36,640 nucleotides of DNA from a virus: positions 1-36,640 of the IMG/VR virus record IMGVR_UViG_3300033552_000033. One strand, written 5' to 3'. Position 1 is the first letter of the stretch. Each line of letters opens with the position of its first letter. The notes under the pieces are model-generated. The model saw only the letters and a program-made list of their open reading frames with translations, had not been told where the DNA came from and made no database searches. This document shows, piece after piece, positions 1,108 to 13,442 of the stretch. The position numbers and the translations under genes were made by a program.

Positions 1108-1572
1108 ATGATTTCAACACAAAACGCAATTATAAAATACGGTTTTCCTACTGAAAATCCTAACTATTTAACAACGTTACGACTACCTTTTCCAATGCGT
1201 TTAAGTTGGGATAAGAATGTTTATGTAAACAAAATCCAATGTCACAAATTAGTAGTTGTTCAGTTAGAATTAATCCTTAAGAAAATTTTAGATTACTACG
1301 GTATTGAGAAAATTAAAAAACTTCAAATCGACATGTATGGAGGTTGCTTTAACTTTCGTAAAATGAGAGGCGGTAATGATTACTCACGGCATTCGTGGGG
1401 AATCGCAATTGATTTAGATCCAGAAAGAAACTTGCTTAAAGAAACATCTAAAACGGCTCGATTTGCAAGGGAAGAATACAAACCAATGATTGACATATTT
1501 TATAAACACGGCTTTGTAAATTTAGGTGTAGAGAAAAATTACGATTGGATGCACTTCCAAGTAAAAGACTAA
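1108..1572 (+). CDS. Endolysin, peptidase M15 (VanY / L-Ala-D-Glu endopeptidase type)
   Basis: SRHSWGIAIDLDP (H-x6-D zinc-ligand motif) plus C-terminal DWMHFQ. It is adjacent to the holin-like genes. Confidence 0.8.
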   Translation: MISTQNAIIKYGFPTENPNYLTTLRLPFPMRLSWDKNVYVNKIQCHKLVVVQLELILKKILDYYGIEKIKKLQIDMYGGCFNFRKMRGGNDYSRHSWGIAIDLDPERNLLKETSKTARFAREEYKPMIDIFYKHGFVNLGVEKNYDWMHFQVKD

Positions 1573-2884: not shown

Positions 2885-3763
2885 ATGAGTAAATATGATT
2901 ATTTTAATTTAGAAGTTTTAAAGCATTTCGGAACATATCCAAACAATACGCATTTAGCGAAAGAGTTATTGCCAAAGGGAGAGCCATTGCAATTGGAAGC
3001 GTTAAGAAAATATATTGCGAAAATGCGTAAACACGCACATCCTAAAGAAGCCAAAGACGGTGTTAAGAGTTTGAAAAAATATTTAGCTATTGAGCCTTAC
3101 CTAAACGGTAACCCAGACAATATTCTAATTATTGGCGATCCACACGAACCATTTACTTTATTAGGTTATTTAAAGTTTTGTAGGGAACAGCAAGAGATTT
3201 ACGATTGCGGAACTGTTGTTTTTATTGGGGACATTATAGATAATCATTACAGTTCGTACCACGAAAGCGACCCCGACGGATACGGTGCGGGTGAGGAATT
3301 AGATAGAACAATTGATAAAATAAAAGATTGGTACAGAACATTTCCTAGAGCCAAAGTTATTGTAGGGAATCATGACCGTTTAGTATATAGAAAAGCATTT
3401 AGTGCAGGAGTTTCAAAAAGATGGATTAGAGATTATAAAGATGTTTTAGGGACACCAGATTGGGAATTTATGGAGAGTGTAGAAATATTTGGAATTAATT
3501 TCAATCATGGTGAGGGTGGTACTGCTAAAAACAGAATGAAAACAGAACTACAAAGCCAAGTTCAAGGACACTTACATACTCAATTATATGCGGAATTTTC
3601 GGTTGGTGCTAATTTTATTGTATTTGGTATGCAGGTGGGTTGTGGTATTGACATTAAAAGCTATGCAATGGCTTATGGGAAGCATTACAAAAAACCCGCT
3701 ATAGGTTGTGGAGTGGTTTTAAATAAAGGTACGTTACCAATAGCAATACCTATGAAAATGTAA
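2885..3763 (+). CDS. Calcineurin-like metallophosphoesterase (lambda phosphatase/NinI-like fold) with an N-terminal extension of about 80 aa
   Basis: Ordered motifs GDPHEP, GDIIDNH, GNHD, NHGEGG and GHLH. Confidence 0.8.
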   Translation: MSKYDYFNLEVLKHFGTYPNNTHLAKELLPKGEPLQLEALRKYIAKMRKHAHPKEAKDGVKSLKKYLAIEPYLNGNPDNILIIGDPHEPFTLLGYLKFCREQQEIYDCGTVVFIGDIIDNHYSSYHESDPDGYGAGEELDRTIDKIKDWYRTFPRAKVIVGNHDRLVYRKAFSAGVSKRWIRDYKDVLGTPDWEFMESVEIFGINFNHGEGGTAKNRMKTELQSQVQGHLHTQLYAEFSVGANFIVFGMQVGCGIDIKSYAMAYGKHYKKPAIGCGVVLNKGTLPIAIPMKM

Positions 3764-3799: not shown

Positions 3800-4067
3800 T
3801 GAGGGAATACAGCCGAAAGTGTAAAAGGCGTGGTTTCGGGAAAACGAGAGTTGAGATACGTTTAAGTTAGTAAGCACGGTGGGAAAGGCTAACATTTTTT
3901 AGACACAAACAAAAACAATAGTTAGTTTAAAGTAAAGAACCCTAATTAAATTTAGGAGCGCAGATTAACGACCTGCACTATTGTTTTTAAAAGTTCATAA
4001 TTTGGTTTTTTTAATTTTTCGGGGTGGTTTCCGAATATCGAACCCTTCTATTTTAGAGGGGTTTTTT
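3800..4067 (+). ncRNA. Candidate structured non-coding RNA (unknown class)
   Basis: A 360-nt ORF-free gap in a densely packed genome. It contains a TAAGTTTG -7-like box at 3794-3801, a 12-bp stem (3911-3922 with 3977-3988) closing a three-way junction, further hairpins, and an intrinsic terminator at 4041-4067. Confidence 0.35.
4041..4067 (+). terminator. Rho-independent terminator
   Basis: AACCCTTCT (4041-4049) pairs with AGAGGGGTT (4055-4063), including one G-U. T-run to 4067. Confidence 0.7.
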
Positions 4068-4078
4068 ATTTTGTTAAA

Positions 4079-4135
4079 GTTACGTTAATATATTAATAAA
4101 TGTATACGTAAATCAAAGTAAAGGTTGTATATTTG
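4079..4135 (+). promoter_or_regulatory. Predicted promoter with inverted pair of ACGT-box motifs (site b)
   Basis: GTTACGTTAATATATTAA (4079-4096), TATACGTAAA (4103-4112) and TATATTTG (4128-4135), at the head of the small-ORF array. Confidence 0.5.
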
Positions 4136-4169
4136 TCTCAGTAATAAAGCGAAACAAAAAACACATATT

Positions 4170-4358
4170 ATGAAAAATTCAATCGAAACTTTAAGAACTG
4201 AAAATAATTTACTTTTAACTTTATCTGAAAATCTTTTAAAAGAATTTAGAAAATTAATGAGAAAAGGAAACGTAAACGGAGCTAAATTAATTTTTTATAG
4301 AGTTGAGGAAGTGAATGCAAAAAGACAAGCTAATAATAAATTAATACTTTCTTTATAA
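4170..4358 (+). CDS. Hypothetical small protein
   Basis: The ORF-track ORF 4125..4358 is trimmed to ATG 4170, because 4128-4135 is the predicted -7 box. Its stop overlaps the next start (TAATG). Confidence 0.45.
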   Translation: MKNSIETLRTENNLLLTLSENLLKEFRKLMRKGNVNGAKLIFYRVEEVNAKRQANNKLILSL

Positions 4359-4516
4359 TGAAAGTAGAATTTAAAGGAGTTGCTCGTGACGGATTAGTTA
4401 TCACGAGTAACTCAATAATTCAAAAAGAAATAAATAATGTGCTTTATACTAAATTATGTATAAAAGGTCATTGGATAAGTATTTTAAATGAATCATTAGA
4501 AATAAAATTATTATGA
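4358..4516 (+). CDS. Hypothetical small protein (52 aa, below the ORF-track cutoff)
   Basis: Hand translation gives MKVEFKGVARDGLVITSNS... It has TAATG and ATGA overlaps with both neighbours. Confidence 0.4.
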   Translation: MKVEFKGVARDGLVITSNSIIQKEINNVLYTKLCIKGHWISILNESLEIKLL

Positions 4517-4704
4517 AAGAATTAAATTTCCCTAAAATAATGAAGTCACAAGACGGTCAAATAGTATTATTTGAATCAGAAGGAAAAGGAGTTGCTTTAA
4601 ACTGTGTGTGCGGAGAAATTGGAATAACTTATTTAGACTGGATAATGTCAAATTTTAAAGATTTTAACCAGCCTTTAATTATTAGCAATGAAATAATACT
4701 ATAA
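4513..4704 (+). CDS. Hypothetical small protein
   Basis: 63-aa ORF, translationally coupled to its neighbours. Confidence 0.5.
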   Translation: MKELNFPKIMKSQDGQIVLFESEGKGVALNCVCGEIGITYLDWIMSNFKDFNQPLIISNEIIL

Positions 4705-4705
4705 A

Positions 4706-4858
4706 ATGAAACAACAAACAGTAAGAAACCCAAAAGGAGCAGGACGACCCAAAGGAATAGAAACTAAGATACTGACTATAAGAGTGTGTAAAGTAATACA
4801 TGATGAACTAAAAGCGATGGTTAAATGTAAAGATGATGAGTTTAGAAAAAACGAGTAA
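4706..4858 (+). CDS. Small basic DNA-binding-like protein (ribbon-helix-helix-like)
   Basis: Hand translation (50 aa) gives MKQQTVRNPKGAGRPKGIETKILTIRVCKVIHDELKAMV... A GRPKG motif followed by a beta-strand and helix pattern is typical of RHH proteins. Confidence 0.4.
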   Translation: MKQQTVRNPKGAGRPKGIETKILTIRVCKVIHDELKAMVKCKDDEFRKNE

Positions 4859-4912
4859 CGTTCGCTAGTGTAAATTCGGCTGCTGAAATGTAACCGCTGT
4901 TATCAGGAGTAC
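4856..4912 (+). repeat. Intercistronic structured element, unit A (degenerate L arm plus canonical R arm)
   Basis: TAACGTTCGC box at 4856; R arm GTTATCAGGAGTAC at 4899-4912. Confidence 0.6.
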
Positions 4913-4938
4913 GAATTAACTAAAACAAAAATATATTT

Positions 4939-5202
4939 ATGGATTTAAAACATCTTTTAAACAGAATAGAAAGGAAAAGAGAACTTAAAATTGAACAGGA
5001 TATTATCGTTAATATTCCAGAATTTCAAACTGGAACAGAGGAAGCGTCGCTGGAAAGTTTAGTTCTTATTTTAAACAAACATCAACCAATAAAAAAATAC
5101 AGTTTTGATGTTAAAAAATTACAAAATTGGTGTGAAGTAAATAATTTGATATATTACATCGATGAACGCAATAGAATAGTTAATTTAAAACTAAAATCGT
5201 AA
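4939..5202 (+). CDS. Hypothetical protein
   Basis: 87-aa ORF with an A-rich leader downstream of an R arm. Confidence 0.55.
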   Translation: MDLKHLLNRIERKRELKIEQDIIVNIPEFQTGTEEASLESLVLILNKHQPIKKYSFDVKKLQNWCEVNNLIYYIDERNRIVNLKLKS

Positions 5203-5210
5203 ATATTATT

Positions 5211-5486
5211 ATGAAAACAGAATTAACAGTAGAACAGAAAATACAGGCTTTATCATCAAAATATTACGATGGATTGCCCTGGAATCCTAAAAAGGGAGAT
5301 TATTACACGACATCAAGAAATGATTTAGAATTATATCAAATTGTTGATGAAAATGAAACTACTTTATTTACAAATTATTGTGGAGAAAAGAAAGCGGACG
5401 AGCCTCACGAATGGAGCAAAAGAAAATTTCTAGAAGATTTTGGAGAAAGACGTGTTTTTGTTCCTGAATTTGTTTTAGGAATTTAA
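5211..5486 (+). CDS. Hypothetical protein
   Basis: 91-aa ORF. Confidence 0.55.
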   Translation: MKTELTVEQKIQALSSKYYDGLPWNPKKGDYYTTSRNDLELYQIVDENETTLFTNYCGEKKADEPHEWSKRKFLEDFGERRVFVPEFVLGI

Positions 5487-5491
5487 ACGCA

Positions 5492-5584
5492 GTATTCCTG
5501 ATAACGTTTCGCAGCCTTAAAATGCCAGCCTATACGCCAACACACTTTTGGCTGGTAAGTCAAGACTGCTGTTATCAGGAGTAC
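5492..5584 (+). repeat. Intercistronic structured element, unit B (complete: L arm, P2, P3 hairpin, R arm)
   Basis: L arm GTATTCCTGATAAC (5492-5505) pairs with R arm GTTATCAGGAGTAC (5571-5584), 14 bp including one G-U. P2 is 5511-5518 with 5562-5569. P3 is CCAGCC (5525-5530) with GGCTGG (5550-5555). Confidence 0.75.
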
Positions 5585-5608
5585 GGCAATTTAAAACTAA
5601 ATATTATT

Positions 5609-5836
5609 ATGAAAAATAAAATAAAAGAAATCCTTAATAATTATGAGGAGCAAATAGAAAGATATGAGTTACAAGTAGAAAAACTTATAGCTAAAATGGA
5701 TTTTTGTTCTGAACATAAATTTAATGAAGAATTTAGAATTGCTAATGTTGAATATCAAGCCGTAAATATGTGTGTTTATAGATGGAGAGATATGCACAAA
5801 GAAATTACATATATTCTTAATGAAACGGAATTGTAG
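5609..5836 (+). CDS. Hypothetical protein
   Basis: The ORF-track ORF 5522..5836 is trimmed to ATG 5609. The leader AAAACTAAATATTATTATG matches the leaders at 4939 and 7431, and the upstream extension would be translated from the folded element. Confidence 0.5.
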   Translation: MKNKIKEILNNYEEQIERYELQVEKLIAKMDFCSEHKFNEEFRIANVEYQAVNMCVYRWRDMHKEITYILNETEL

Positions 5837-5934
5837 TATTCCTGATAACGTATCGCAGCCTTGAAATTCCAGCCTATTTATAAAGTTGCTTCGGCTGGTA
5901 AGTAAAGACGGCTGTTATGCATAGTCTTTTTTTT
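5836..5934 (+). repeat. Intercistronic structured element, unit C (L arm, P3 hairpin, variant R' arm, T-run)
   Basis: L arm at 5836-5849. CCAGCC (5869-5874) pairs with GGCTGG (5893-5898) around an unrelated loop. R' arm GGCTGTTATGCATAGTC at 5910-5926. AAAGAC/GTCTTT stem plus T8 at 5904-5934. Confidence 0.7.
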
Positions 5935-5968
5935 ACTAAATTTATAAATTAACTTAAAAACAAACAAA

Positions 5969-6151
5969 ATGATAATCAAAGCAAAATTCACAGGAACAAA
6001 TTCTTTAGGGTATGAAACAGGAAAAGAATACGAATTAAAAGTAGCAGATTTACAAGGAATTTCAGTAGTAAGATTAGACGGGACAGGCAAATGCCCATAT
6101 ATGTCTCTATCTTCTTTTTTAAAAAATTGGACTAATATAGTCGTTGTGTAA
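5969..6151 (+). CDS. Hypothetical protein
   Basis: 60-aa ORF bracketed by the R'/L' inverted repeat pair. Confidence 0.5.
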   Translation: MIIKAKFTGTNSLGYETGKEYELKVADLQGISVVRLDGTGKCPYMSLSSFLKNWTNIVVV

Positions 6152-6301
6152 GATTATGCATAACGGCCGATGATACGGGAGGTTTTTCGGAATGGCCAAG
6201 AACTGTACTTTCTGGCCATTACAAAAAATAACAAGTACAGACAGATAAATCAATAATCAAAAATGCCGAAAATCTCTTGTATCATTTGTTAGGGAATCGG
6301 C
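6152..6301 (+). repeat. Intercistronic structured element, unit D (L' arm, 20-bp stem, hairpin, pseudoknot)
   Basis: GATTATGCATAACGGCC at 6152-6168. Long stem 6170-6190 with 6266-6285, containing 3 G-U pairs. Hairpin 6191-6198 with 6213-6220. Loop CTGTACT (6203-6209) is complementary to AGTACAG (6234-6240). Confidence 0.65.
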
Positions 6302-6319
6302 TTTTTAACACAAAACATT

Positions 6320-6538
6320 ATGGAAATAGAAAAGCATCTTGATTGGTTTCCTAGTTTTGAAAACCAAATAGATATAAAAGAAAAAACATTTACAATTACT
6401 ATTAAACAAGAAGAAATAGAGATAGAGTGCGACTGGGATTATGGATATGGTGGTAGAGGAACAGAGATAATGTACTTAAATTTGGAACTTTTAGAAAATT
6501 TAATCACTGAATTAAGACTCTCGCAAGCTGTTCCCTAA
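6320..6538 (+). CDS. Hypothetical protein
   Basis: 72-aa ORF. Confidence 0.5.
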   Translation: MEIEKHLDWFPSFENQIDIKEKTFTITIKQEEIEIECDWDYGYGGRGTEIMYLNLELLENLITELRLSQAVP

Positions 6539-6640
6539 TAGGCGCGCACTTCACGAAGTTTCAATTTCTTGAAACGTGTAGTTGAGCGAAGTGTGCGCCT
6601 ATTGAGTGAAGTGCGTGCGCGCATTTCACTCAACGTTCCC
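6537..6640 (+). repeat. Intercistronic structured element, unit E (two GC-rich hairpins)
   Basis: AATAGGCGCGCACTTC (6537-6552) pairs with GAAGTGTGCGCCTATT (6588-6603). Inner hairpin at 6558-6575. Second 12-bp hairpin at 6604-6631. AACGTTCCCG box at 6632-6641. Confidence 0.65.
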
Positions 6641-6692
6641 GTGACTGTTGTAGTTGTAAATAATTAAAGACTAATAATAACAAAAAAATACT

Positions 6693-6941
6693 ATGGAAAT
6701 TAAAAACAAAATTGCCGAAATAATAACTCAAACTCATAAAACACCATTTGAGCAAGCGGAAGAAATTGTACAATTATTTGCTGAAAATAACGATTACAAG
6801 CAATTACTACAGTCACGTGTTAGTGGGCAAAGCGAACTGTCTTGTGGCGGTAATTGCGGAATGAATTATTGTGACACAAACGGATGTATGGATAGAAAAC
6901 GAATACTTACTGAACCAAAACCGCCAGAAGATAGTCACTAA
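6693..6941 (+). CDS. Hypothetical protein with Cys-rich C-terminal segment
   Basis: 82 aa containing CGGNCGMNYCDTNGC. The stop lies within a TAACGTTCCCGC box. Confidence 0.5.
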   Translation: MEIKNKIAEIITQTHKTPFEQAEEIVQLFAENNDYKQLLQSRVSGQSELSCGGNCGMNYCDTNGCMDRKRILTEPKPPEDSH

Positions 6942-7092
6942 CGTTCCCGCTACTATAATTTCGGCTTGAGGTGGTCAGAAACCATATTTCGGATGAGCAA
7001 AAATAAAACAAACACAAAAAATTAATAACCCAATTACTGATAAAAAAGCTGAAATATAGCAGTTGTTAGCAGTAGTTATAATACTCGCAATT

Positions 7093-7263
7093 ATGATAAT
7101 ATACAAATTAGAATGCACAAATCAACACGGAGAAATAGAAGTAAATGGTTATTTTTTGAATAAAGAATACGCTAAGATTTGCAAAAAAGAAAACGATGAG
7201 CATCCTTGTAATAAAAAATACGGAATAATTCAACATATTATTGAAATTGAGGTTATCGAATAA
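7093..7263 (+). CDS. Hypothetical small protein
   Basis: The ORF track starts at a TTG (7063); ATG 7093 is preferred. Confidence 0.4.
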   Translation: MIIYKLECTNQHGEIEVNGYFLNKEYAKICKKENDEHPCNKKYGIIQHIIEIEVIE

Positions 7264-7405
7264 TTACTGCTAACGTTTCGCAGCCTTGCTTAGTGGCTGA
7301 TTCAAGACTGAGAAAAACAAACACAAACTAATAATCAAATTAAGAAACTATGAACAAAGAAAAGATAAATGAGCCATTGAGCAAGACTGCTGTTATCAGG
7401 AGTAC
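7264..7405 (+). repeat. Intercistronic structured element, unit G (degenerate L arm, hairpin, 71-nt insert, R arm)
   Basis: CTGCTAACGTTTCGCAGCC at 7267-7285. CAAGACTG occurs twice (7303-7310 and 7382-7389), flanking an extra segment. R arm at 7392-7405. Confidence 0.6.
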
Positions 7406-7430
7406 GAATTAATTTAAACTAAATATAATT

Positions 7431-7739
7431 ATGAAAACGGAATTTAAAGGTACTAAAGGAAAATTAAGTTTTTCAAGTCAAAAAGGAACAATAAACCATT
7501 GCGTTATGGCGCAAGTGTGGTCTGATAAACAAGAAACTTATGTAGCGAGGATTAATAGCACTGAGGACGAGCAAGAAGCTACGGCAAACGCAAGATTATT
7601 TTCAAACGCACCTGATTTATTAAATAATTTTATATCCGCTATAATTTTACTTAAACAAACTACCGAGTTTGAAGTTTTAGAAAGCTACCGAATTAAAGTA
7701 TTAGAGTTTGAAAAAGTTCTTGAAAAAGCATTAACGTAG
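7431..7739 (+). CDS. Hypothetical protein
   Basis: 102-aa ORF. The segment ANARLFSNAPDLLNNF resembles a motif common in uncharacterised phage proteins. Confidence 0.55.
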   Translation: MKTEFKGTKGKLSFSSQKGTINHCVMAQVWSDKQETYVARINSTEDEQEATANARLFSNAPDLLNNFISAIILLKQTTEFEVLESYRIKVLEFEKVLEKALT

Positions 7740-7752
7740 TATTCCTGATAAC
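7739..7752 (+). repeat. Solo L arm (unit H)
   Basis: GTATTCCTGATAAC overlaps stop codon TAG 7737-7739. No R partner lies downstream. Confidence 0.6.
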
Positions 7753-7784
7753 TACCTGCTACACGCTATAAATGTTTTACAATT

Positions 7785-7967
7785 ATGAAAAACTACACTA
7801 AAGTAAAGGTTATACGTATTTCAGAAGTGCAATTAAAAACGCTTAATAAAATGAAGTCGTATAATATTGATGTTGGTAAATTCATTAGAGACTCAATTTC
7901 AGAAAAGATAAAAAGGGAGTATTTAGAATTAATACCAAAGCCAGAGAAAGTAAAATATCCGTTTTAA
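7785..7967 (+). CDS. Small RHH-like protein; excisionase or regulator candidate
   Basis: 60 aa with a strand-helix-helix pattern (VKVIRISEVQLKTLNKM...GKFIRDSISEKI). It is convergent with the integrase. Confidence 0.35.
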   Translation: MKNYTKVKVIRISEVQLKTLNKMKSYNIDVGKFIRDSISEKIKREYLELIPKPEKVKYPF

Positions 7968-8017
7968 TCAAATAACAATCAAATAAGAATATCAATAAAT
8001 ACAGTACTTAACAAAGG

Positions 8018-8052
8018 AAAGTGTTTAAAAGTATCTAAAAGTGTTTAAAAGT
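8018..8052. repeat. Two direct copies of AAAGTGTTTAAAAGT, 20 nt apart
   Basis: Copies at 8018-8032 and 8038-8052, the second overlapping the integrase stop. Confidence 0.6.
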
Positions 8053-9196
8053 CCGTTCCTTTTTCTAGTATCTCTTTGCGGTTTATTTCTTTTAGATTGG
8101 TAATATAAATTTGTGTGGTAACTTCTGAACTGTGACCTGCTAAATCTTTAATGGCATTAATTGACACGTTAGCTAAAATAAGAGCGTTTGCACCTGCTTT
8201 TTTTAAAGCGTATAAATTCATGTCGATTCCTAATTTCTTTTTAACTACGGTCTCCCATCGCCTTGTTGCAGTGTCTCTATTAATATGAGTTGGTGCGGGA
8301 ATGAAATCATTAAATTTCCCTATATTACCCTTGCCAACTTCACGAAAAGAACCAAACAAATAATAATCTTTTGGTAAATTTTCAAACTGTAAATTTTTAT
8401 AATATTCCAATAAGAACGGAGATATCGGAACAACTCTTTTTTTATTGGTTTTTGTTATTTCTGGTGGTAACACTATTTCACTATCTTTTAAATTAACCAT
8501 TGATAACTTAATTTTTAAAATTTCCTCTGGTCTAATTAAAGTAAAAAATATTGTAATACAAAAAACGTAAAAATTATAATGATTAGCTTCTAACTCTTTT
8601 TTTATTTTCGCCATATCTTCTTTGCTCGCTGGCTTATTTGAGTCGGGCGCTGAAACCTTTAAATTATCAACTTTAAACGCTGGACTATTCTCTATTATAT
8701 CCCATTGCAAAAGCTCGCTTAAAACCGCCTTAAAATGGTTCAAATGTTTATTATATGCTTTATTGCTCCAGTTATTCAATTCCTTTGCCTTTTCCGTTAT
8801 TAACTTAACGTGAACACGTTTACAGTCAATTATTTTCAAATGTGTTAAGCCGATATTATTTATTGCAATTTCTAAAAAGTTTACAGATCCGTTATACCCT
8901 GAATAAGTTTTCTTTGAAATATTACTTTTCTTTTTGTCTAAGGCAAAACGTAAAGATTCAATTAATGTGAATTGGCTTTGTTGATTTATTTGATCTATTG
9001 TGTCTGGATTCCAACCCTCTTTTAAATCGTTCAGGATTAATTTAGCTAAATAGTTAAATTCAAGTTCCCTTTGCTTTAAATCTTTGATACGGTTTATTTC
9101 ATTTTTGATGCGGTGTTGCTTCCCGTTAAATCGAAAATGTACGTACCATGAAACACCGCTTTTTGATAATTTAGGGATTGTATAAGAGTTTTCCAT
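8045..9196 (-). CDS. int: Tyrosine recombinase / phage integrase (Bacteroidota type with N-terminal Arm DNA-binding domain)
   Basis: N-terminus SGVSWYVHFRFNGKQHRI. Catalytic region with LIRPEEI ... LKKAGANALI ... LAGHSSEVTTQIYI (R..K..H..Y pattern). Confidence 0.9.
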   Translation of the reverse strand: MENSYTIPKLSKSGVSWYVHFRFNGKQHRIKNEINRIKDLKQRELEFNYLAKLILNDLKEGWNPDTIDQINQQSQFTLIESLRFALDKKKSNISKKTYSGYNGSVNFLEIAINNIGLTHLKIIDCKRVHVKLITEKAKELNNWSNKAYNKHLNHFKAVLSELLQWDIIENSPAFKVDNLKVSAPDSNKPASKEDMAKIKKELEANHYNFYVFCITIFFTLIRPEEILKIKLSMVNLKDSEIVLPPEITKTNKKRVVPISPFLLEYYKNLQFENLPKDYYLFGSFREVGKGNIGKFNDFIPAPTHINRDTATRRWETVVKKKLGIDMNLYALKKAGANALILANVSINAIKDLAGHSSEVTTQIYITNLKEINRKEILEKGTDF

Positions 9197-9197
9197 T

Positions 9198-9218
9198 TGT
9201 GTACTGTTTTGTGTACTA
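9198..9218. repeat. Candidate integrase arm-type sites (pair 1)
   Basis: TGTGTACTG (9198-9206) and TGTGTACTA (9210-9218), 12-nt phasing. Confidence 0.45.
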
Positions 9219-9224
9219 TAAGGT

Positions 9225-9265
9225 AAAAAAAAATCGGGAAGTCACTGTTTATAGCGCTTCCCGAT
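9225..9265 (-). terminator. Rho-independent terminator on the minus strand, between the HTH gene and int
   Basis: ATCGGGAAG (9233-9241) pairs with CTTCCCGAT (9257-9265). The A-run 9225-9233 gives a U-tract on the minus strand. Confidence 0.65.
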
Positions 9266-9267
9266 TC

Positions 9268-9285
9268 TGGGCGGAGAAAGAGGGA
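9268..9285 (-). other. Candidate attP core resembling the 3' end of a tRNA (Ser-like acceptor/T-stem)
   Basis: The minus strand reads TCCCTCTTTCTCCGCCCA, which matches T-stem 3' strand CCCTC, then acceptor TTTCTCC, then discriminator G. The similarity ends before the T-loop. Confidence 0.45.
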
Positions 9286-9341
9286 AACTACGTAATATAT
9301 TTTAAGTGAAAAAATATGAACGTTTACGGGCGTTCTATGTA

Positions 9342-9632
9342 TTATACACTAGCGCATTTTACCTTTGTTTGTGTACTGTTTTGGGTACTGTGTTGACGCA
9401 TAAAAAGATTTTCAGTTTTTCTTATAATCCAGTTAGAATCTAAATTGTAAAACTCACAAATATTATGTACATGAATTAAATTAAAATGATTCACTTTATT
9501 TTTTATATTGGATAAGTTTTGTTCAGGCAAACCACATGCATTGCAAAAGTCACGTTTGTATTTCAACACGCCACGGCTTTGCAATTCCTTTAAAAGCTCA
9601 AACATCCGTTTATCTAAATCTTCTATTTTCAT
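9342..9632 (-). CDS. HTH DNA-binding protein (XRE/cI-like, no peptidase domain)
   Basis: FCNACGLPEQNLSNIKNKVNHFNLIHVHNICEFYNLDSNWII is a typical HTH ending in a DxxW(L/I) motif. Confidence 0.6.
   Translation of the reverse strand: MKIEDLDKRMFELLKELQSRGVLKYKRDFCNACGLPEQNLSNIKNKVNHFNLIHVHNICEFYNLDSNWIIRKTENLFMRQHSTQNSTQTKVKCASV
9370..9390. repeat. Candidate integrase arm-type sites (pair 2)
   Basis: TGTGTACTG (9370-9378) and TGGGTACTG (9382-9390), with the same 12-nt phasing as pair 1. Confidence 0.45.
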
Positions 9633-9775
9633 AATGTTAAGTTTGTGTAAAATGAGGTTTCCCGTAAAGAAGTTATTTATATAACTATTACGTTTGAGTA
9701 ATTAACCTCAAAACCTATTTAAAATGATTTACCTACTTTGGTTTAAAAACCTGCTTATTAATTTTGTATTAAAAA

Positions 9776-10099
9776 TTATTGTTTGTTTACTAAAATTTTT
9801 AATAAGTCCTTTATCGTTTCTTTTAAAAATTCGTTTTCTTTAACCAAATCGAAATTATCTTTTACAAAAACCTCTTTCCTATCTGGTGAGGGGTTTTTTG
9901 TTTCTATCATTTTAAAACCTTTTTTGAACTTATCAATAAAATCTTTTGACGGTTTTATTTTCCCGCTCATAATTCCAGAAACCGCACCTTTAGAAAAGTT
10001 AGTTACTTCTACTATTTCCGTATTAGTAGGTGTAGATACAAACTGTTTTAGTAAGTAGTCTAGTTCCTCGTTCCCGTTAAAGCGTTCAATCTTAATCAT
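9776..10099 (-). CDS. Putative CI-like repressor (HTH plus C-terminal coiled coil)
   Basis: HTH segment NTEIVEVTNFSKGAVSGIMSGKIKPSKDFI. It is divergent from the cro-like gene. The start is trimmed from TTG 10135 to ATG 10099 because 10104-10143 holds the operator repeats. Confidence 0.55.
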   Translation of the reverse strand: MIKIERFNGNEELDYLLKQFVSTPTNTEIVEVTNFSKGAVSGIMSGKIKPSKDFIDKFKKGFKMIETKNPSPDRKEVFVKDNFDLVKENEFLKETIKDLLKILVNKQ

Positions 10100-10223: not shown

Positions 10224-10436
10224 ATGATAAAAAAAGAGATTTTAGTTAGTTTGGTAAGAGATAACTTACTACATGATAAAATATTTTTAAAATTGAAATA
10301 TCGCCAATCAACTATCAGTCAATCATTTAAGAGGTGCGTAGAACGAAACAAGATAAGCGGAAAGACGCATGACCCCGCAGTATTAGATATTATCAAAAAA
10401 CACTTAAAATTAACCGATAAACAACTTTTTGAATAA
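10224..10436 (+). CDS. Cro-like early regulator (tentative)
   Basis: 70-aa basic ORF, first gene rightward of the operator cluster. Confidence 0.4.
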   Translation: MIKKEILVSLVRDNLLHDKIFLKLKYRQSTISQSFKRCVERNKISGKTHDPAVLDIIKKHLKLTDKQLFE

Positions 10437-10534
10437 TGAAAAACATTGAAAATTATATAGAAAAATACTATTACAAAGCTGGAGTGTGTATAGTACTTGT
10501 TTGGGTAATCACAGGTTTAATCTTATTTATTTAG
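10436..10534 (+). CDS. 32-aa single-TM micro-protein (tentative)
   Basis: Hand translation gives MKNIENYIEKYYYKAGVCIVLVWVITGLILFI. It fills the gap before the methyltransferase ATG. Confidence 0.3.
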   Translation: MKNIENYIEKYYYKAGVCIVLVWVITGLILFI

Positions 10535-10536
10535 TT

Positions 10537-11154
10537 ATGATAAATATAACAAATGAGTGTAACATGGAGCTAATGGCTCGTTATCCAGACAATTACTTTG
10601 ATTTAGCAATAGTTGACCCGCCTTATGGGATAGATTACGCTAAAAGAAAACAAAAAAACAAAAATTCAAAGATAAAATATACTCCGAAAAATTGGGACGT
10701 TAACAGACCTGAAAAAGAATATTTTACAGAATTAATGAGGGTTTCAAAAAATCAAATAATTTGGGGAGGAAATTACTTTTTAGACATTTTAGGTAATAGT
10801 AAAGGAATGATTTGTTGGGATAAATGCCAGCCAGAAGGACTTGATCAAGCTATGTGTGAATTTGCTTGGACTAATATAAATAAAAGTGCTAAAATAGTTA
10901 AAACATCAATACAACAGATACAATTTACAAGAACACACCCAACGGAAAAACCGAAAAAATTATATGATTGGTTATTAAATATGTACGCAAAAGACGGTGA
11001 TAAAATATTAGATACGCATTTAGGCTCTGGAAGCATTGCAATAGCGTGCCATGATTATAAGTTTGAGTTAACAGCTTGCGAATTAGATAAGGAATACTTT
11101 GACAAAGCAATGGAGCGTATCAATAACCACGTAGCACAGCAGAAGCTATTTTAA
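10537..11154 (+). CDS. Orphan DNA methyltransferase (N6-A/N4-C family, beta-class motif order)
   Basis: IVDPPYGI (motif IV) precedes LDTHLGSGSIAIAC (motif I). No restriction partner is present. Start set to ATG 10537 rather than GTG 10486. Confidence 0.85.
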   Translation: MINITNECNMELMARYPDNYFDLAIVDPPYGIDYAKRKQKNKNSKIKYTPKNWDVNRPEKEYFTELMRVSKNQIIWGGNYFLDILGNSKGMICWDKCQPEGLDQAMCEFAWTNINKSAKIVKTSIQQIQFTRTHPTEKPKKLYDWLLNMYAKDGDKILDTHLGSGSIAIACHDYKFELTACELDKEYFDKAMERINNHVAQQKLF

Positions 11155-11165
11155 ATAAAAAAAAT

Positions 11166-11417
11166 ATGGAATTAAACACTAATGAGAGAACGGATTTACC
11201 TCAAATTCATTTATCCGCAATTGACGGAGAAACAAAGGCACAAGCGACCGAAATAGTTATTCATAAAATTGCCGATGGTTCTATTTTTATAGAATGGTTT
11301 CCAAGTGAAATTATACAAAAAGCATTGAACTGCAATCAATTTATGGCAACCTTTAATCAAGAAGCAAAAAATAAATTAATTGATTTTATAAATTCTGATG
11401 TGACTTATGTGATTTAA
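11166..11417 (+). CDS. Hypothetical protein
   Basis: 83-aa ORF. Confidence 0.5.
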   Translation: MELNTNERTDLPQIHLSAIDGETKAQATEIVIHKIADGSIFIEWFPSEIIQKALNCNQFMATFNQEAKNKLIDFINSDVTYVI

Positions 11418-11472
11418 CGTAGCTATTGGATACACACTATAAACACATTACAATATTTAAAAACCTATTCTA

Positions 11473-11649
11473 ATGACAAAGGAGAAACAAATTGAACTGA
11501 TACTTCAGCTAATTAATAGTGATGCAGTACCTAGTGTCCCAAAGCTAAACAACCGTAAAGAAACCCCGAAGGAAATGCAAATTAGAGTATCTAAAAACTT
11601 TACTGAATACAAGGTAAAAATAGCTATTAAAAAAAATTTGCAAAAATAG
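11473..11649 (+). CDS. Hypothetical small protein (58 aa)
   Basis: Hand translation gives MTKEKQIELILQLINSDAVPSV... Confidence 0.35.
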   Translation: MTKEKQIELILQLINSDAVPSVPKLNNRKETPKEMQIRVSKNFTEYKVKIAIKKNLQK

Positions 11650-11702
11650 TTCAATAAAAGTTTTTTAGTTCAATAAAAGTTTACTAAATTTGAATATTCA
11701 AA
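11648..11702 (+). promoter_or_regulatory. Second operator/promoter cluster with the same architecture as 10104-10181
   Basis: AGTTCAATAAAAGTT at 11648-11662 and 11667-11681 (19-nt phasing). TAAATTTG at 11685-11692. Perfect palindrome TTTGAATATTCAAA at 11689-11702. Confidence 0.6.
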
Positions 11703-11723
11703 ACAACCAAACAATTAGAAATT

Positions 11724-11972
11724 ATGACACTAACTAAAAAAGATTTATTCAACCTAACCGCTCCACAAGGAATGTTTACACCTGATTCAATTAAAGAGGT
11801 TATTTCATACACTGGAGTAAAACGATTAGTTTATTTCAAAAAAGTAAACGGTGCAAGTTTTTGGAGCGATTCACTTGACAGTTTAGAGATAATGGTAAGA
11901 AATCACAAACCATTAATTAACGATGGTGCAAAGTGGGATTATAATAACGGAACTAATTTTAATAACGATTAA
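11724..11972 (+). CDS. Hypothetical protein
   Basis: 82-aa ORF. Confidence 0.5.
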   Translation: MTLTKKDLFNLTAPQGMFTPDSIKEVISYTGVKRLVYFKKVNGASFWSDSLDSLEIMVRNHKPLINDGAKWDYNNGTNFNND

Positions 11973-11974
11973 TT

Positions 11975-12082
11975 ATGAATTGGATAAATAAAACTACAGC
12001 GGACTACAAAAAAGAAGCTGAAGAAGCGATAAGAAAACACGAAGAAAAAAGAAAAGAGCAACTTGAAAAACAGACAAAATGA
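11975..12082 (+). CDS. Hypothetical 35-aa charged peptide (tentative)
   Basis: Hand translation; ATGA overlap with the next ORF. Confidence 0.3.
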   Translation: MNWINKTTADYKKEAEEAIRKHEEKRKEQLEKQTK

Positions 12083-12246
12083 AAACAGGATATAAAATAA
12101 CAGGTTCGATTTGGTCAACATCTAAATATTTTTATGTGTATAATTTTCCAAGTTTAAATGAATTATTTCTAGCTGGTTTTTTAGATAAAAATAAAAAAAC
12201 AAGTGTGTATAATGAATGTGTCGGAGTTTGGAAAATTAAAAACTAA
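12079..12246 (+). CDS. Hypothetical small protein (55 aa)
   Basis: Hand translation gives MKTGYKITGSIWSTSKYFYVYNF... Confidence 0.35.
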   Translation: MKTGYKITGSIWSTSKYFYVYNFPSLNELFLAGFLDKNKKTSVYNECVGVWKIKN

Positions 12247-12252
12247 AAAATA

Positions 12253-12435
12253 ATGGAACTACACACAAGAAAACCAAGTTTAAAATCAGCCTTAAATAGG
12301 CTTTTTAGGGTAGCTAAAAGGATTGAAATCACAAAGCTATCTACAAGCACCGTAACGGTTAAAAACGTTTACAAAAACAAACAAATTATAGATGTATCAA
12401 GTCAAATTATTAACAGATGTTACTCAAGAATATGA
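12253..12435 (+). CDS. Hypothetical small basic protein
   Basis: 60-aa ORF. Confidence 0.4.
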   Translation: MELHTRKPSLKSALNRLFRVAKRIEITKLSTSTVTVKNVYKNKQIIDVSSQIINRCYSRI

Positions 12436-12518
12436 AAAATAAAATAATATTATCCGTACTAATTACAATTTTCTCCTCAATAATGATCTATGTGATTGTT
12501 TACGGAGACATGAGCTAA
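12432..12518 (+). CDS. 28-aa single-TM micro-protein (tentative)
   Basis: MKNKIILSVLITIFSSIMIYVIVYGDMS; ATGA overlap with the upstream ORF. Confidence 0.3.
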   Translation: MKNKIILSVLITIFSSIMIYVIVYGDMS

Positions 12519-12537
12519 ACCAATTAAAAAACAAATT

Positions 12538-13200
12538 ATGAAAAATTTAGATTTATGGAACAAGGTCGAAAAAACCAATCCAAAGTACACAAAAAACGCA
12601 AATGTAAGAGGCAATAAAATAACATCGATAAGCCCACAGTTTCAGATAATGAACGTGACTGAGCAGTTTGGAACATACGGTGAAACATGGGGGTTTAAAA
12701 ACCTTGTATTAGATTATTCTTTGTCAAAAGATTTTGGCTTGGTAGTGTTAAACGCAACATTCTTTTTTCCTAAAGGAGAATTTGAAATTAAAAATTCAAT
12801 TAGTTTATTTATTGATAATGCGAAAACAAAAGTAGATAACGATTTTGCAAAGAAAATAGAAACCGACACGCTTACAAAAGCAATATCTAAACTAGGATTT
12901 AATGCGGATATATTCATGGGTAAATTTGATGACTTAAGATACATTGAAGAAATGAATGAGGAATTTAATCCAGAGATTAAGGCTAAAAAAGAAGCTGATT
13001 TAAAAGAAGCTAAATTATTAGAAGATAAACAAGCCAAAGAAATTTCAGACAGAATTGAGCGTAATACTATCCGTTTGAATACTTGTGAAACTGTAGAAAT
13101 GTTAGGTAACCTTTATAATACTTTCTCTCCAATTGAGAAAACTGAAATGAAAGTTTTAACTACGGAACTTAAAGAAAAATTAACCTTAATATCAGCGTAA
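12538..13200 (+). CDS. Single-strand annealing protein, Rad52/Sak-like (tentative family)
   Basis: KKIETDTLTKAISKLGFNADIFMGKFDDLRY resembles the conserved Rad52/Sak core. It lies next to the SSB gene. Confidence 0.55.
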   Translation: MKNLDLWNKVEKTNPKYTKNANVRGNKITSISPQFQIMNVTEQFGTYGETWGFKNLVLDYSLSKDFGLVVLNATFFFPKGEFEIKNSISLFIDNAKTKVDNDFAKKIETDTLTKAISKLGFNADIFMGKFDDLRYIEEMNEEFNPEIKAKKEADLKEAKLLEDKQAKEISDRIERNTIRLNTCETVEMLGNLYNTFSPIEKTEMKVLTTELKEKLTLISA

Positions 13201-13442
13201 TGGAAAGTAACAGAGAAGTATTTTTAAGAATGTCAGAGGAACATTATATGGCAATACCAAGCGAGGTACGTGAGTCATTTTTAAGTGATAAAAGAGTAGA
13301 TGAAGAAAAAGGAGACTGGTCGGAAAATATGAAAGATATAGATTTTTCGCTTTTGTATAAAGGTGTGAAAACTGCAAAAAAATATCTATCTGATAGAGAA
13401 TTTCAGTTAAGAGAAGAACGTAGAAAAATAACAATTAAATAA
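13200..13442 (+). CDS. Hypothetical protein
   Basis: 80-aa ORF with a TAATG overlap. Confidence 0.5.
   Translation: MESNREVFLRMSEEHYMAIPSEVRESFLSDKRVDEEKGDWSENMKDIDFSLLYKGVKTAKKYLSDREFQLREERRKITIK

Follow-up and report, generated by a model that had tools for sequence, protein, structure and literature searches.

A probable mobile gene-cassette array, without its recombinase, in a viral genome, and its integron-like relatives in phages of Flavobacteriia

Results

The window (the whole stretch of 36,640 nt that was analysed, IMG/VR record IMGVR_UViG_3300033552_000033) carries an array of seven cassettes, one empty cassette and seven hairpins (Table 1). A preliminary description had noted a GC-enriched element in nearly every gap between the small ORFs, and seven GC-richer gap elements (A–G) were confirmed; no further elements occur elsewhere in the 36.6-kb window. 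The L-arm-like end of the pre-array ORF has no matching R arm upstream, and gap element A is akin to the 'CGCTAGTATAATTTCGGCTG' type of hairpin in phage 6H. In cassette 4 the core of the L arm is mutated to TAAT; the arm family is intact in 6H, 1H, F7 and L005. The R arm of cassette 5 directly adjoins the preceding AAC, with no hairpin in between, and its pairing is probably partial (GTGACTGT / AGTCAC).

At the fixed end of the array, the RHH-like ORF occupies the place that the recombinase has in other arrays, an arrangement found at 23 of 136 loci. As the window encodes no member of the array-linked recombinase family, this is an orphan array with only putative activity of its own. The neighbouring convergent integrase does not belong to the array-associated recombinase family and is listed for context only.

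Table 1. Components of the cassette array and adjacent genes.
Feature	Position	Strand	Description
L-arm-like end of pre-array ORF 4706-4858	4846..4859	+	TAA of its TAAC core serves as the stop codon; the array's first core
Gap element A	4857..4901	+	45 nt, AAC..GTT; decayed or truncated hairpin; weak fold (-5.2 kcal/mol)
Cassette 1	4899..5505	+	R arm 4899-4912 GTTATCAGGAGTAC; ORFs 4939-5202 and 5211-5486; L arm 5492-5505 GTATTCCTGATAAC
Gap hairpin B	5503..5573	+	short class, 71 nt
Cassette 2	5571..5849	+	R arm 5571-5584; ORF 5609-5836 (75 aa); L arm 5836-5849
Gap hairpin C	5847..5916	+	short class, 70 nt; arms on its two sides mismatched
Cassette 3	5914..6164	+	R arm 5914-5927 GTTATGCATAGTCT; ORF 5969-6151; L arm 6151-6164 AGATTATGCATAAC
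Gap hairpin D	6162..6290	+	long class, 129 nt; -37.9 kcal/mol
Cassette 4	6288..6539	+	R arm 6288-6301 GTTAGGGAATCGGC, bulged T; ORF 6320-6538; L arm 6526-6539 AGCTGTTCCCTAAT
Gap hairpin E	6536..6605	+	70 nt; near-perfect 16-bp stem
Empty cassette	6601..6634	+	arms (A)TTGAGTGAAGTGCG / CGCATTTCACTCAAC with a 4-nt loop between them; no ORF; G·T at position 11
Cassette 5	6635..6942	+	degenerate R arm 6635-6650 GTTCCCGTGACTGTTG; ORF 6693-6941; L arm 6929-6942 AGATAGTCACTAAC
Gap hairpin F	6940..7067	+	long class, 128 nt; homologous to hairpins in L005, L009 and L012
Cassette 6	7065..7274	+	R arm 7065-7078 GTTAGCAGTAGTTA; ORF 7093-7263; L arm 7261-7274 TAATTACTGCTAAC
Gap hairpin G	7272..7394	+	long class, 123 nt
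Cassette 7	7392..7752	+	R arm 7392-7405; ORF 7431-7739; L arm 7739-7752
Fixed array end	7750..7967	+	last core TAAC|TACCTGCTACACGCTATAAATG.., then conserved RHH-like ORF 7785-7967
Phage integrase	8045..9196	-	383 aa; convergent with the array; TIGR02249 20.7 bits vs 265

The recurrent arm sequences were found as described before, with exact copies of the L arm at 5492, 5836 and 7739 and of the R arm at 4899, 5571 and 7392, all on the plus strand. When up to 3 mismatches are allowed, shuffled sequences contain a mean of 3.9 matches to the L arm and 1.6 to the R arm, and the 10 R-arm matches actually seen were reached by no shuffle. The reported association with start and stop codons also stands: the L arms lie at stop codons (TAG at 5834-5836 and 7737-7739, and TAA at 5484-5486, six nt upstream of the arm at 5492), while the R arms precede the ATGs at 4939, 5609 and 7431 by 25–27 nt. 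The two sequences are complementary at 13 of 14 positions, with a single G(R)/T(L) at position 11, and the arms of cassette 1 accordingly show 13 of 14 Watson-Crick pairs. Two supposed degenerate L-arm copies, near 4853 and 7264, are not copies of it: the latter (7261-7274) is a distinct arm with its own partner at 7065-7078, and 4846-4859 has nothing but the TAAC core in common with the L arm.

What could not be upheld is the claim that an L arm pairs with the R arm of its own gap. Among homologous phages, arms that share a gap are mostly unrelated, they pair at no more than background level (in 191 gaps, delimited without reference to the arms, and in 93 gaps), and substitutions in them are not compensated within the gap, the outcome that the preliminary description had itself named as a refutation. 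The partner of an R arm is instead the L arm beyond the downstream ORF (seen in about 150 cassettes at about 140 related loci), so that each cassette ORF is enclosed by its own complementary arm pair of 14–15 nt. Pairing at 9–10 of 10 positions was seen for 25 across-ORF pairs versus 4 of the 191 within-gap pairs. The arm stem is 15 bp long and ends sharply, and its sequence is freely variable (more than 80 variants; 36 distinct arm pairs among 46 cassettes), with position 11, read on the ORF strand, being G·T in about 99% of cassettes. An independent replication on 117 new loci gave arms with a partner matching at 9 or more of 10 positions in 59/85 and 50/87 cases (shuffles: 0/85), and G·T at position 11 in 108/109. 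Homologous ORFs carry compensated arms, for example GTTAGGGCAAGTAC / GTATTTGCCCTAAC on the L006 homologue of the cassette 7 ORF, and cassette 3, with an arm sequence other than that of cassettes 1 and 2, likewise pairs across its ORF. The geometry is constant, as the ATG follows the R arm by about 25 nt, the stop codon adjoins the L arm or coincides with the core's TAA, and the ORF is co-oriented with its cassette in 44 of 46 cases.

The gap hairpins (about 70 or 122–128 nt) are separate from the arms and constitute a genuine family of structured intercistronic elements with strong covariation: double compensatory changes affect 18 of 19 pairs in the stem, 85.6% of cells are paired (54.7% when shuffled), and the covariation score is 0.68 vs 0.19. 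The box AACGT(T/A)TCGCAGCC and the CCAGCC/GGCTGG hairpin described for units B and C are present. That the fold belongs to the sense strand is borne out by stem-only energies, which favour this strand in 22 of 27 hairpins (p=2e-4), and the stems contain 42 sense G·T pairs vs 8 A·C. A search of Rfam returned 0 matches even at E<=1, in keeping with the earlier statement that no named RNA family was recognised. Neither intrinsic terminators in the gaps nor a promoter motif were detected. Hairpin sequence families recur within and between phages at 75–95% identity; the elements form one array per genome, in a single orientation and always between cassettes.

The secondary idea of recombination joints for cassette shuffling proved sound. 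In near-identical cultured F. psychrophilum phages, homology stops exactly at TAAC|G and less often at CT|GTTA, which indicates that cassettes have been exchanged there. Phages 2A and D17, for example, differ by a 925-nt indel bounded by CTAACG. About 33 of 83 high-identity breakpoints lie at TAACG, and metagenomic HSPs also begin and stop at cores. Hairpins reassort with both neighbours, and a single crossover site thus cannot explain everything; gap hairpin G is 87% identical to L004 6769-6888, yet both flanking arms differ.

In relatives, the arrays are linked to a short tyrosine recombinase (264–278 aa) of the Xer/IntI clade, which lacks the IntI-specific insertion and scores below the IntI cutoff. 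Same-strand cassettes lie upstream of this gene at 47 of 50 loci, with none downstream (0/49) and none upstream on the opposite strand; the recombinase is therefore downstream of the cassettes and co-oriented with them, and its ATG follows the last core by 52–53 nt, across a conserved junction. The cassette system, with its own recombinase, is present in hundreds of phage contigs, and a complete copy of the platform resides within an F. columnare prophage.

Discussion

Of the explanations considered, we favour one in which the region is a mobile gene-cassette array of a Flavobacterium-type phage, probably an orphan copy, devoid of a recombinase, of an integron-like platform with a wide distribution among phages of Flavobacteriia. 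The platform is best read as integron-like yet distinct from the canonical integron. Two kinds of stem-loop module alternate in it: ORF modules, starting with GTTA, ending with TAAC and carrying their own complementary 14–15-nt arms with the invariant G·T, and hairpin modules, whose covarying stem measures about 19 bp and whose loop is rich in A. The short sequences TAAC|G and CT|GTTA are the cores at which these are joined and recombine, and in complete platforms the last TAAC core is followed by the conserved 52-nt junction, as a putative attI analogue, and then by the short Xer/IntI-like recombinase gene. A unit (hairpin - R arm - leader - ORF - L arm) may be excised as a circle, which would make L arm, hairpin and R arm contiguous. 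On the ORF-sense single strand, the presumed substrate, these are predicted to fold into one long imperfect hairpin (15-bp outer stem, asymmetric internal loop, 19-bp inner stem). The recombinase would cut after TAAC and insert the unit at a resident TAAC core; this would explain why the arms flank the ORF in the linear array.

The proposal that the 14-nt arms of each gap pair to close it into an independent RNA hairpin is barely credible. Unit B (5492-5584) can adopt such a fold only because three cassettes of the window happen to share one arm family; in unit C and in most gaps of relatives, as in an L006 gap where GTATTTGCCCTAAC faces GTTATCAGGAGTAC, the arms are unrelated, complementarity does not exceed background, and compensation is found across ORFs instead. 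A related reading, which we consider unlikely but more serious, has sense-strand RNA elements in which long-range pairing over 15 bp, with G·U at position 11, encloses each cistron and a hairpin lies between one cistron and the next. These would act as RNase III-like processing stalks (cf. those of rRNA precursors and of T7 early mRNAs), as caps that stabilise the mRNA or as insulators of translation, while exchange at cores is a by-product of microhomology and of selection against crossovers that break stems or ORFs. The invariant wobble, its bias to the sense strand, the strict co-orientation of ORFs (44/46; no opposite-strand cassettes) and the fixed spacing to start and stop codons are no less compatible with an RNA role. 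The arrangement in which the arms pair, that of the array, is also the one that is transcribed, and the gaps are free of intrinsic terminators. Structured elements also punctuate polycistronic units at RNase III stalks (rRNA operons, where long-range stems enclose a functional RNA, and T7 early intercistronic sites) and at T4 promoter-early stem-loops (PeSLs). This reading leaves unexplained, however, the tight and oriented linkage to a tyrosine recombinase with its conserved junction, the recurrent breakpoints of nucleotide precision, and recombination of an L core by IntI1 (see below); no Rfam family matches, and typical substrates of bacterial RNase III have stems longer than 15 bp. The dedicated recombinase at the array end in relatives, which the RNase III and PeSL systems do not share, makes the processing, cap and insulator readings less necessary. 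An RNA role could exist side by side with recombination, and the limitation of crossovers to unpaired linkers could derive in part from microhomology and selection rather than from catalysis.

Selfish palindromes (REP/BIME- or MITE-like), or linkers resembling the T4 PeSLs, which lie on either side of the small ORFs that are shuffled in hyperplastic regions of phages, would supply mere homology for general recombination, with no dedicated site-specific machinery. Recurrent hairpin families are in line with this, and a phage-encoded exonuclease makes homology-driven exchange plausible. We nevertheless regard it as very unlikely, as each genome has the elements in a single array only, all in one orientation and between cassettes, and as homologous recombination inside hairpins should yield chimeric stems, whereas the stems remain complementary and the breakpoints fall at cores of 5–6 nt; nor does it account for cassette-specific complementary arms, the invariant G·T or the adjacent recombinase.

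A bacterial integron remnant (CALIN), with ordinary attC sites used by a host IntI, is also highly improbable, despite attC-like NTAAC...GTTA cores, site sizes and imperfect hairpins. The likeness to integrons is extensive: arrays of short, co-oriented, apparently promoterless ORFs are separated by imperfect-palindrome sites with structure more conserved than sequence, the cores are ..TAAC and GTTA.. (vs RYYYAAC / GTTRRRY), site sizes are similar (about 45–136 nt), stop codons overlap the site, and an Xer/IntI-clade recombinase and a fixed end site adjoin the array. In both, recombination leaves a portion of the site with the adjacent cassette, which is why the arms pair across the ORF. Prior art is partial, as HattCI had already annotated two members of this family in Polaribacter phage P12002L as attC; one of the two was recombined by IntI1 at GCCTAA|C, on the ORF sense strand, while P12002L_attC1, which clearly belongs to the family, failed with this enzyme (PMC9892861). 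Against a CALIN, the folded strand is the ORF sense strand and not the bottom strand, the hairpin is a separately reassorting module that does not travel with the upstream ORF, and crossovers occur mainly at the stop-adjacent TAAC, and also at the other core, rather than at a distal G|TT. The measured outer stem of 15 bp with its invariant G·T, the linked Xer-like enzyme without IntI insertion, located downstream, the presence of the system in hundreds of phage contigs and its carriage by phages of Flavobacteriia also set it apart.

Our favoured reading, recombination of folded cassette sites, has further parallels. Acinetobacter dif modules (pdif / XerCD; Microbiol Spectr 2026;14:e03186-25, PMC13141974) also comprise two alternating module types between inversely oriented recombination sites, some without an ORF. 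Related replicons differ by exchange, deletion or inversion of such modules, the crossovers centre on the sites, and Xer-type recombinases are implicated. The modules reside in plasmids rather than phages, and pdif sites are 28-bp duplexes that comprise a 6-bp spacer and conserved arms to which XerC and XerD bind. In the phage elements the arms vary freely and only complementarity and the 4-nt core are conserved, which implies recognition of a folded strand. Such recognition resembles CTX-phi attP(+) and other folded single-stranded Xer substrates, where an Xer-family enzyme acts on a hairpin from one specific phage DNA strand and mismatches define the substrate; CTX-phi attP(+) has, however, no sequence similarity to the present elements, and a whole single-stranded phage is integrated at dif instead of cassettes being shuffled inside a double-stranded one. 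Arrays with a dedicated recombinase thus have the appearance of an integron-like platform for gene shuffling that is carried by viruses and has not been described before.

Accessory and anti-restriction genes make up the cargo, and 7 of 8 larger cassettes encode orphan DNA methyltransferases. CALINs have been reported in phages, and methyltransferase cargo was noted there too (Front Microbiol 2023;14:1091391, PMC9892861).

Results

Setting and content of the array

The PHROGs annotation of the window shows a temperate siphovirus, in whose genome the small ORFs form a cassette array in the cargo position. The terminator upstream of the array suggests that this region starts a separate transcription unit. 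The array comprises seven cassettes, a further cassette that is empty, and seven hairpins, of which two are decayed. None of the small ORFs has a Pfam match; in relatives, the larger cassette ORFs are DNA methyltransferases in 7 of 8 cases, belonging to four families.

Features in and around the cassette array of the window
Feature	Position	Strand	Remarks
Endolysin	1108-1572		PHROGs
Metallophosphoesterase	2885-3763		PHROGs
Terminator	4040-4064	+	intrinsic-type hairpin and T-run; just 5' of the small-ORF block
Cassette array	after the terminator, before the RHH-like ORF		
RHH-like ORF	7785-7967		weak DUF6290 match, E=0.005
Integrase, 383 aa	8045-9196		convergent with the array
Early genes, then late genes	after the integrase		

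Arms pair across the ORF

The preliminary description recorded two recurrent motifs, and both are present exactly as it reported: the L arm GTATTCCTGATAAC at 5492, 5836 and 7739, at or overlapping stop codons, and the R arm GTTATCAGGAGTAC at 4899, 5571 and 7392, 25-27 nt 5' of ATGs, all on the + strand. The GC-richer elements that it placed in the gaps between small ORFs are likewise found; there are seven, from 4857 to 7394. The two motifs are complementary at 13 of 14 positions, the sole exception being position 11, with G in the R arm and T in the L arm.

It had also been proposed that the two arms of one gap pair with each other, and that degenerate L arms lie near 4853 and 7264. These are not copies, the sequence at 7261-7274 being a different arm with its partner at 7065-7078. 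In gap element C (5847-5916), a repeat finder showed a canonical L arm together with an unrelated R arm, GTTATGCATAGTCT at 5914, which is complementary to AGATTATGCATAAC at 6151, beyond the ORF at 5969-6151. A scan of viral contigs with the R arm gave seven true relatives. The relative phage locus L006 has a homologue of window ORF 7431-7739, bordered by GTTAGGGCAAGTAC and GTATTTGCCCTAAC, where five central bases are altered on both sides and the position-11 G·T is kept; the gap 3' of this homologue holds its own L arm GTATTTGCCCTAAC and an unrelated R arm.

Pairing was assessed systematically with arm pairs of the form GTT(N11)...(N11)AAC at a threshold of at least 12 of 14 Watson-Crick positions. 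A looser scan counting G·T as a pair was overwhelmed by background, and detection of AAC...GTT elements by fold energy was too noisy; both were abandoned. The 46 cassettes obtained have 36 distinct arm pairs, in which at most one position other than the G·T at position 11 departs from Watson-Crick pairing, while only one internally pairing gap, that of window element B (5503-5573), was seen among 12 sources. A non-circular test, where gaps were set by the cores (TAAC|G and CT|GTTA) and the inner stem alone, without the arms, gave 25 across-ORF pairs scoring 9-10 of 10 variable positions, all with position-11 G·T, and only 4 of 191 within-gap pairs at that score. The result was replicated independently on 117 new loci retrieved by hairpin edges alone: a partner at 9/10 or better was found for 59 of 85 R arms and 50 of 87 L arms (shuffles, 0/85), and position 11 was G·T in 108 of 109 cases, over 84 distinct arms. 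Within-gap pairing was again at background level. As complementarity within gaps does not exceed background and the partners lie across the ORF, the 14-bp stem previously drawn inside the gap is an accident, seen in element B because three window cassettes share one arm family.

The outer helix formed by the arms ends sharply, with position 15 paired in 69 of 88 cases and position 16 in 5 of 88; T·T occupies position 10 in 12/88 and the base is closed by T·G in 69/88. There are more than 80 different arm sequences, in which only TAAC/GTTA and position 11 are invariant. In the empty cassette (6601-6634), an R-type arm of 15 nt is separated from its L-type partner by only a 4-nt joint, TGCG, and the position-11 G·T is kept; the R arm of the cassette that follows abuts AAC directly, without a hairpin (6632-6650). 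Arms can thus remain where there is no cargo, and a direct AAC|GTT joint is possible.

A sub-class of R arms (for example at window 6288-6310) has TCGGC at its end, with a T-run after it (GTTAGGGAATCGGCTTTTT), its L partners beginning with AGCTG; these arms follow the position-11 rule given one bulged T. The T-run may point to weak termination or to a different signal.

A covarying hairpin fills the gap

The stretch from AAC to GTT holds a hairpin of its own, which falls into two narrow size classes, one of about 70 nt and one of 122-128 nt, and is set off by a 5-nt spacer, GTTYY, after AAC and by 1-2 nt, (C)T, before GTT. In its stem of about 19 bp, a C·A lies near position 5 and two G·T pairs recur. 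RNAalifold applied to 27 diverse hairpins gave 19 pairs, and compensatory double changes occur at 18 of these. Hairpin cells were paired in 85.6%, compared with 54.7% after shuffling (0/500 shuffles reached the observed value), and the covariation score of 0.68 compares with 0.19 for shuffles and at most 0.18 for slid registers. The earlier remark that no named RNA family could be recognised agrees with Rfam: no covariance model matched anywhere in the window at the gathering threshold, and none matched 4000-8100 at E<=1.

In the long hairpins, the A-rich loops have in common CAAGTACAAAA, and AAATTATAAATTAAGCC directly 5' of the 3' arm (window 6228-6245 and many loci). Some of them contain a short ATG-initiated reading frame.

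Folding strand and ORF geometry

Whole-element energies made the antisense strand slightly more stable, an artefact of A-rich versus U-rich loops; they are misleading because of the A-rich loops, and the preference was reversed by stem-only folding, which favoured the ORF sense strand in 22 of 27 hairpins (p=2e-4, with RNA and DNA parameters alike). Sense-strand G·T outnumbers A·C in the stems by 42 to 8, and the ORF is on the position-11 G·T strand in 44 of 46 cassettes. The sense-strand fold inferred in the preliminary description therefore stands. The cassette ATG is typically 36-39 nt 3' of GTT, and the stop codon either lies just 5' of the L arm or coincides with TAA in the TAAC core.

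Homology breaks at the cores

The suggestion that the elements are recombination joints for cassette shuffling is upheld by the homology breakpoints, which fall at the cores. In BLAST comparisons between arrays, homology blocks begin and stop at most about 3 nt away from AAC or GTT, and the TAACG core holds about 33 of 83 distinct breakpoints (at least 95% identity). The same arrays occur in the cultured temperate F. psychrophilum phages 6H, 23T, 2A, 1H, FPSV-D15, -D17 and -F7. Between 2A and D17, identity extends to ...CGCTAACG and resumes at CTAACG..., D17 carrying 925 nt extra that correspond to two whole [hairpin - R arm - ORF - L arm] units. A single L arm is joined to as many as four different downstream sequences, one hairpin is found 3' of four different L arms and 5' of three different R arms, and four different last cassettes are joined to the same downstream sequence. 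ORF modules and hairpin modules alternate, and both kinds reassort at the cores.

A short recombinase is linked to the arrays

Iterative HMM searches over all ORFs of the array loci revealed a short tyrosine recombinase of 264-278 aa, encoded on the cassette strand and starting about 45-55 nt past the last L core in 9 of 10 loci; one example is the 267-aa enzyme of locus L222, at 9001-9804. The family falls in the Xer/IntI clade (NF040815, 173-191 bits; XerC/D, about 150-160 bits; TIGR02249, 145-164 bits in two pieces, with a cutoff of 265). Its closest solved relatives are XerC-like, XerA and IntI4; it lacks the IntI-specific insertion (34 aa vs 82 in IntI4, 2a3v), and its alignment is contiguous with XerA and XerC-like proteins.

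IMG/VR contains 475 relatives of this recombinase. Cassettes were sought within 3 kb in the 50 recombinase loci with enough upstream sequence, and same-strand G·T-arm cassettes lie upstream in 47 of them; in these 50 loci none was found downstream, and none upstream on the opposite strand. The last core is 52-53 nt before the recombinase ATG, in a conserved junction NTAAC|TAYTATATGTA...AAACACYAATAAA...ATG. A 70%-identical recombinase is encoded in an F. columnare chromosome, CP197485.1, within a prophage with the order primase, about nine cassettes, junction, recombinase, structural genes. As the junction is intact inside this prophage, the recombinase is not the prophage integrase at that junction.

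An HMM search found no member of this recombinase family in the window, and the 383-aa integrase there is unrelated to it (20.7 bits on TIGR02249, cutoff 265). The window array is therefore an orphan and, having an array and no recombinase, CALIN-like. That integrase was rejected as the cassette recombinase, its homologues occurring in only 4 of 136 array loci.

The conserved RHH-like terminal ORF occupies the place of the recombinase at the array end in 23 of 136 loci; a scan of genome contigs with this ORF found no relatives. The ORF at 4706-4858 likewise looks RHH-like (..GRPKG..TIRV..); the array of L006 contains one that is similar.

Discussion

The anatomy, covariation, strand bias, core breakpoints and recombinase linkage described here are best read as those of an integron-like or dif-module-like cassette system. 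The preliminary interpretation is partly supported: the structured sense-strand family and the recombination-joint idea were right, while the pairing partners were not, and its primary RNA-processing reading is not supported. RNase III-type sites are cut within stems of the transcript, giving mature 5' and 3' ends. The same structures may have an RNA role as processing stalks or insulation, possibly alongside recombination, and the sense-strand folding bias is consistent with this, but such a role cannot explain the linkage to a recombinase.

Several known systems resemble the arrays in part. The attC sites of integrons are imperfect inverted repeats of 57-141 nt with R''(..AAC) and R'(GTT..) cores, conserved in structure more than in sequence; the gap elements are attC-like in their NTAAC/GTTA cores, their sizes and their covarying hairpin, and unlike attC in the 15-bp outer stem with its G·T. 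The co-oriented cassettes, fixed site and adjoining recombinase of relatives (47/50, with a conserved 52-nt junction) are also integron-like. However, IntI has a family-specific insertion in its catalytic domain and its gene adjoins the array, a description that fits neither the window integrase nor the array-linked recombinase of relatives. In integrons the strand that recombines is the bottom one, antisense with respect to the cassette ORF, whereas here sense-strand stems are more stable and the position-11 G·T is on the ORF strand. An integron cassette is an ORF with its downstream attC, and crossover takes place away from the ORF, at G|TT of R'; natural breakpoints here are mainly at TAAC|G, beside the stop codon, and a hairpin travelling with the upstream ORF was rejected, as hairpins are linked to the upstream L arm in 0 of 69 pairs and weakly to the downstream R arm.

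The pdif/XerCD sites are 28 bp long, with conserved XerC and XerD arms and a 6-bp spacer; duplex sites of this type are ruled out by arms that are not conserved and by unequal spacing (5 nt vs 1-2 nt). REP/BIME or MITE elements occur as many dispersed intergenic copies in both orientations, with target duplications or a RAYT/transposase. The present copies are limited to one array and one orientation and always alternate with cassettes, which speaks against such elements, and no HUH/Y1 gene was seen in the window. In T4 PeSL, an early promoter and a stem-loop flank each ORF; a sigma-70 scan of the gaps, which does not cover Bacteroidota promoters, gave no consistent site. The gap elements were rejected as terminators, none being found within the gaps. 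Alternating modules, inversely oriented bounding sites and exchange between replicons are shared with dif modules, those of Acinetobacter (PMC13141974) being the nearest analogue in layout.

Literature searches returned nothing closer than a screen of 10,705 phage genomes (PMC9892861), in which a CALIN was reported in Polaribacter phage P12002L and HattCI called two sites attC. We find attC1 to be a short gap element of the present family, and attC2 to correspond to a methyltransferase cassette's L core, read from the opposite strand. In that study IntI1 failed on attC1 and recombined attC2 at G|TTAGGC; the strand used corresponds to the sense strand of the ORF. Across-ORF arms, the position-11 G·T, alternating modules, Flavobacterium phages and the Xer-like recombinase are not described there.

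We favour a process where the unit [hairpin - R arm - ORF - L arm] would circularise, so that L arm-TAAC|GTTYY-hairpin-CT-GTTA-R arm could form one long imperfect sense-strand hairpin. The recombinase would cut after TAAC and insert the unit at a resident TAAC, leaving the unit's own arms flanking its ORF; crossovers at CT|GTTA would result when, more rarely, the other strand is used. We put at somewhat better than even the chance that this is an undescribed, IntI-independent system of cassette capture and shuffling native to Flavobacteriia phages, in which a short Xer-like recombinase reads a folded, ORF-sense single strand (15-bp helix, obligatory position-11 G·T, TAAC cleavage core, covarying hairpin), which swaps anti-restriction methyltransferases and small accessory genes between phages, and by which orphan arrays such as that of the window are mobilised in trans.

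If confirmed, phages of the Flavobacteriia, a major aquatic and fish-pathogen-associated bacterial class, own an integron-like engine for gaining and reshuffling accessory genes, with a cargo that prominently includes orphan DNA methyltransferases, which defeat host restriction. Structure-dependent cassette recombination would then reach past IntI to a simple Xer-like enzyme, providing a second example, independently evolved or highly diverged, on which the integron rules of strand choice, extrahelical features and site polarity can be tested. It would also account for the hypervariable small-ORF regions of Flavobacterium phages in aquaculture phage therapy. With a defined substrate (15-bp helix, fixed G·T, 4-nt core) and culturable material (the F. 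columnare prophage; F. psychrophilum phages 6H, 2A and FPSV-D17), the mechanism is directly testable, and the system may serve as a compact recombination tool.

Some further observations concern individual loci. The early-region DNA methyltransferase of the window (10486-11154) has 67% DNA identity to the methyltransferase at L015 5895-6510, which in that relative lies inside a G·T-arm cassette; the window copy has no recognisable arms, and may be a fixed former cassette gene or a cassette source. In the locus of phage 6H (L017), an identical hairpin and cassette occur twice (about 6100-6500 and 8400-8850 of the locus, arms GTTAGGGAATCGGC / AGCTGTTCCCTAAC), flanking an insertion of about 2 kb that carries, on the opposite strand, a host-like fragment of cytochrome c oxidase subunit I. 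In the relative locus L005 (oriented copy), two arrays of opposite orientation (8007-9716 and 11039-13287) diverge from a region of perfect long inverted repeats (10252-10600), an arrangement that looks as if an entire array had been inverted as a block, an event also reported for dif modules.
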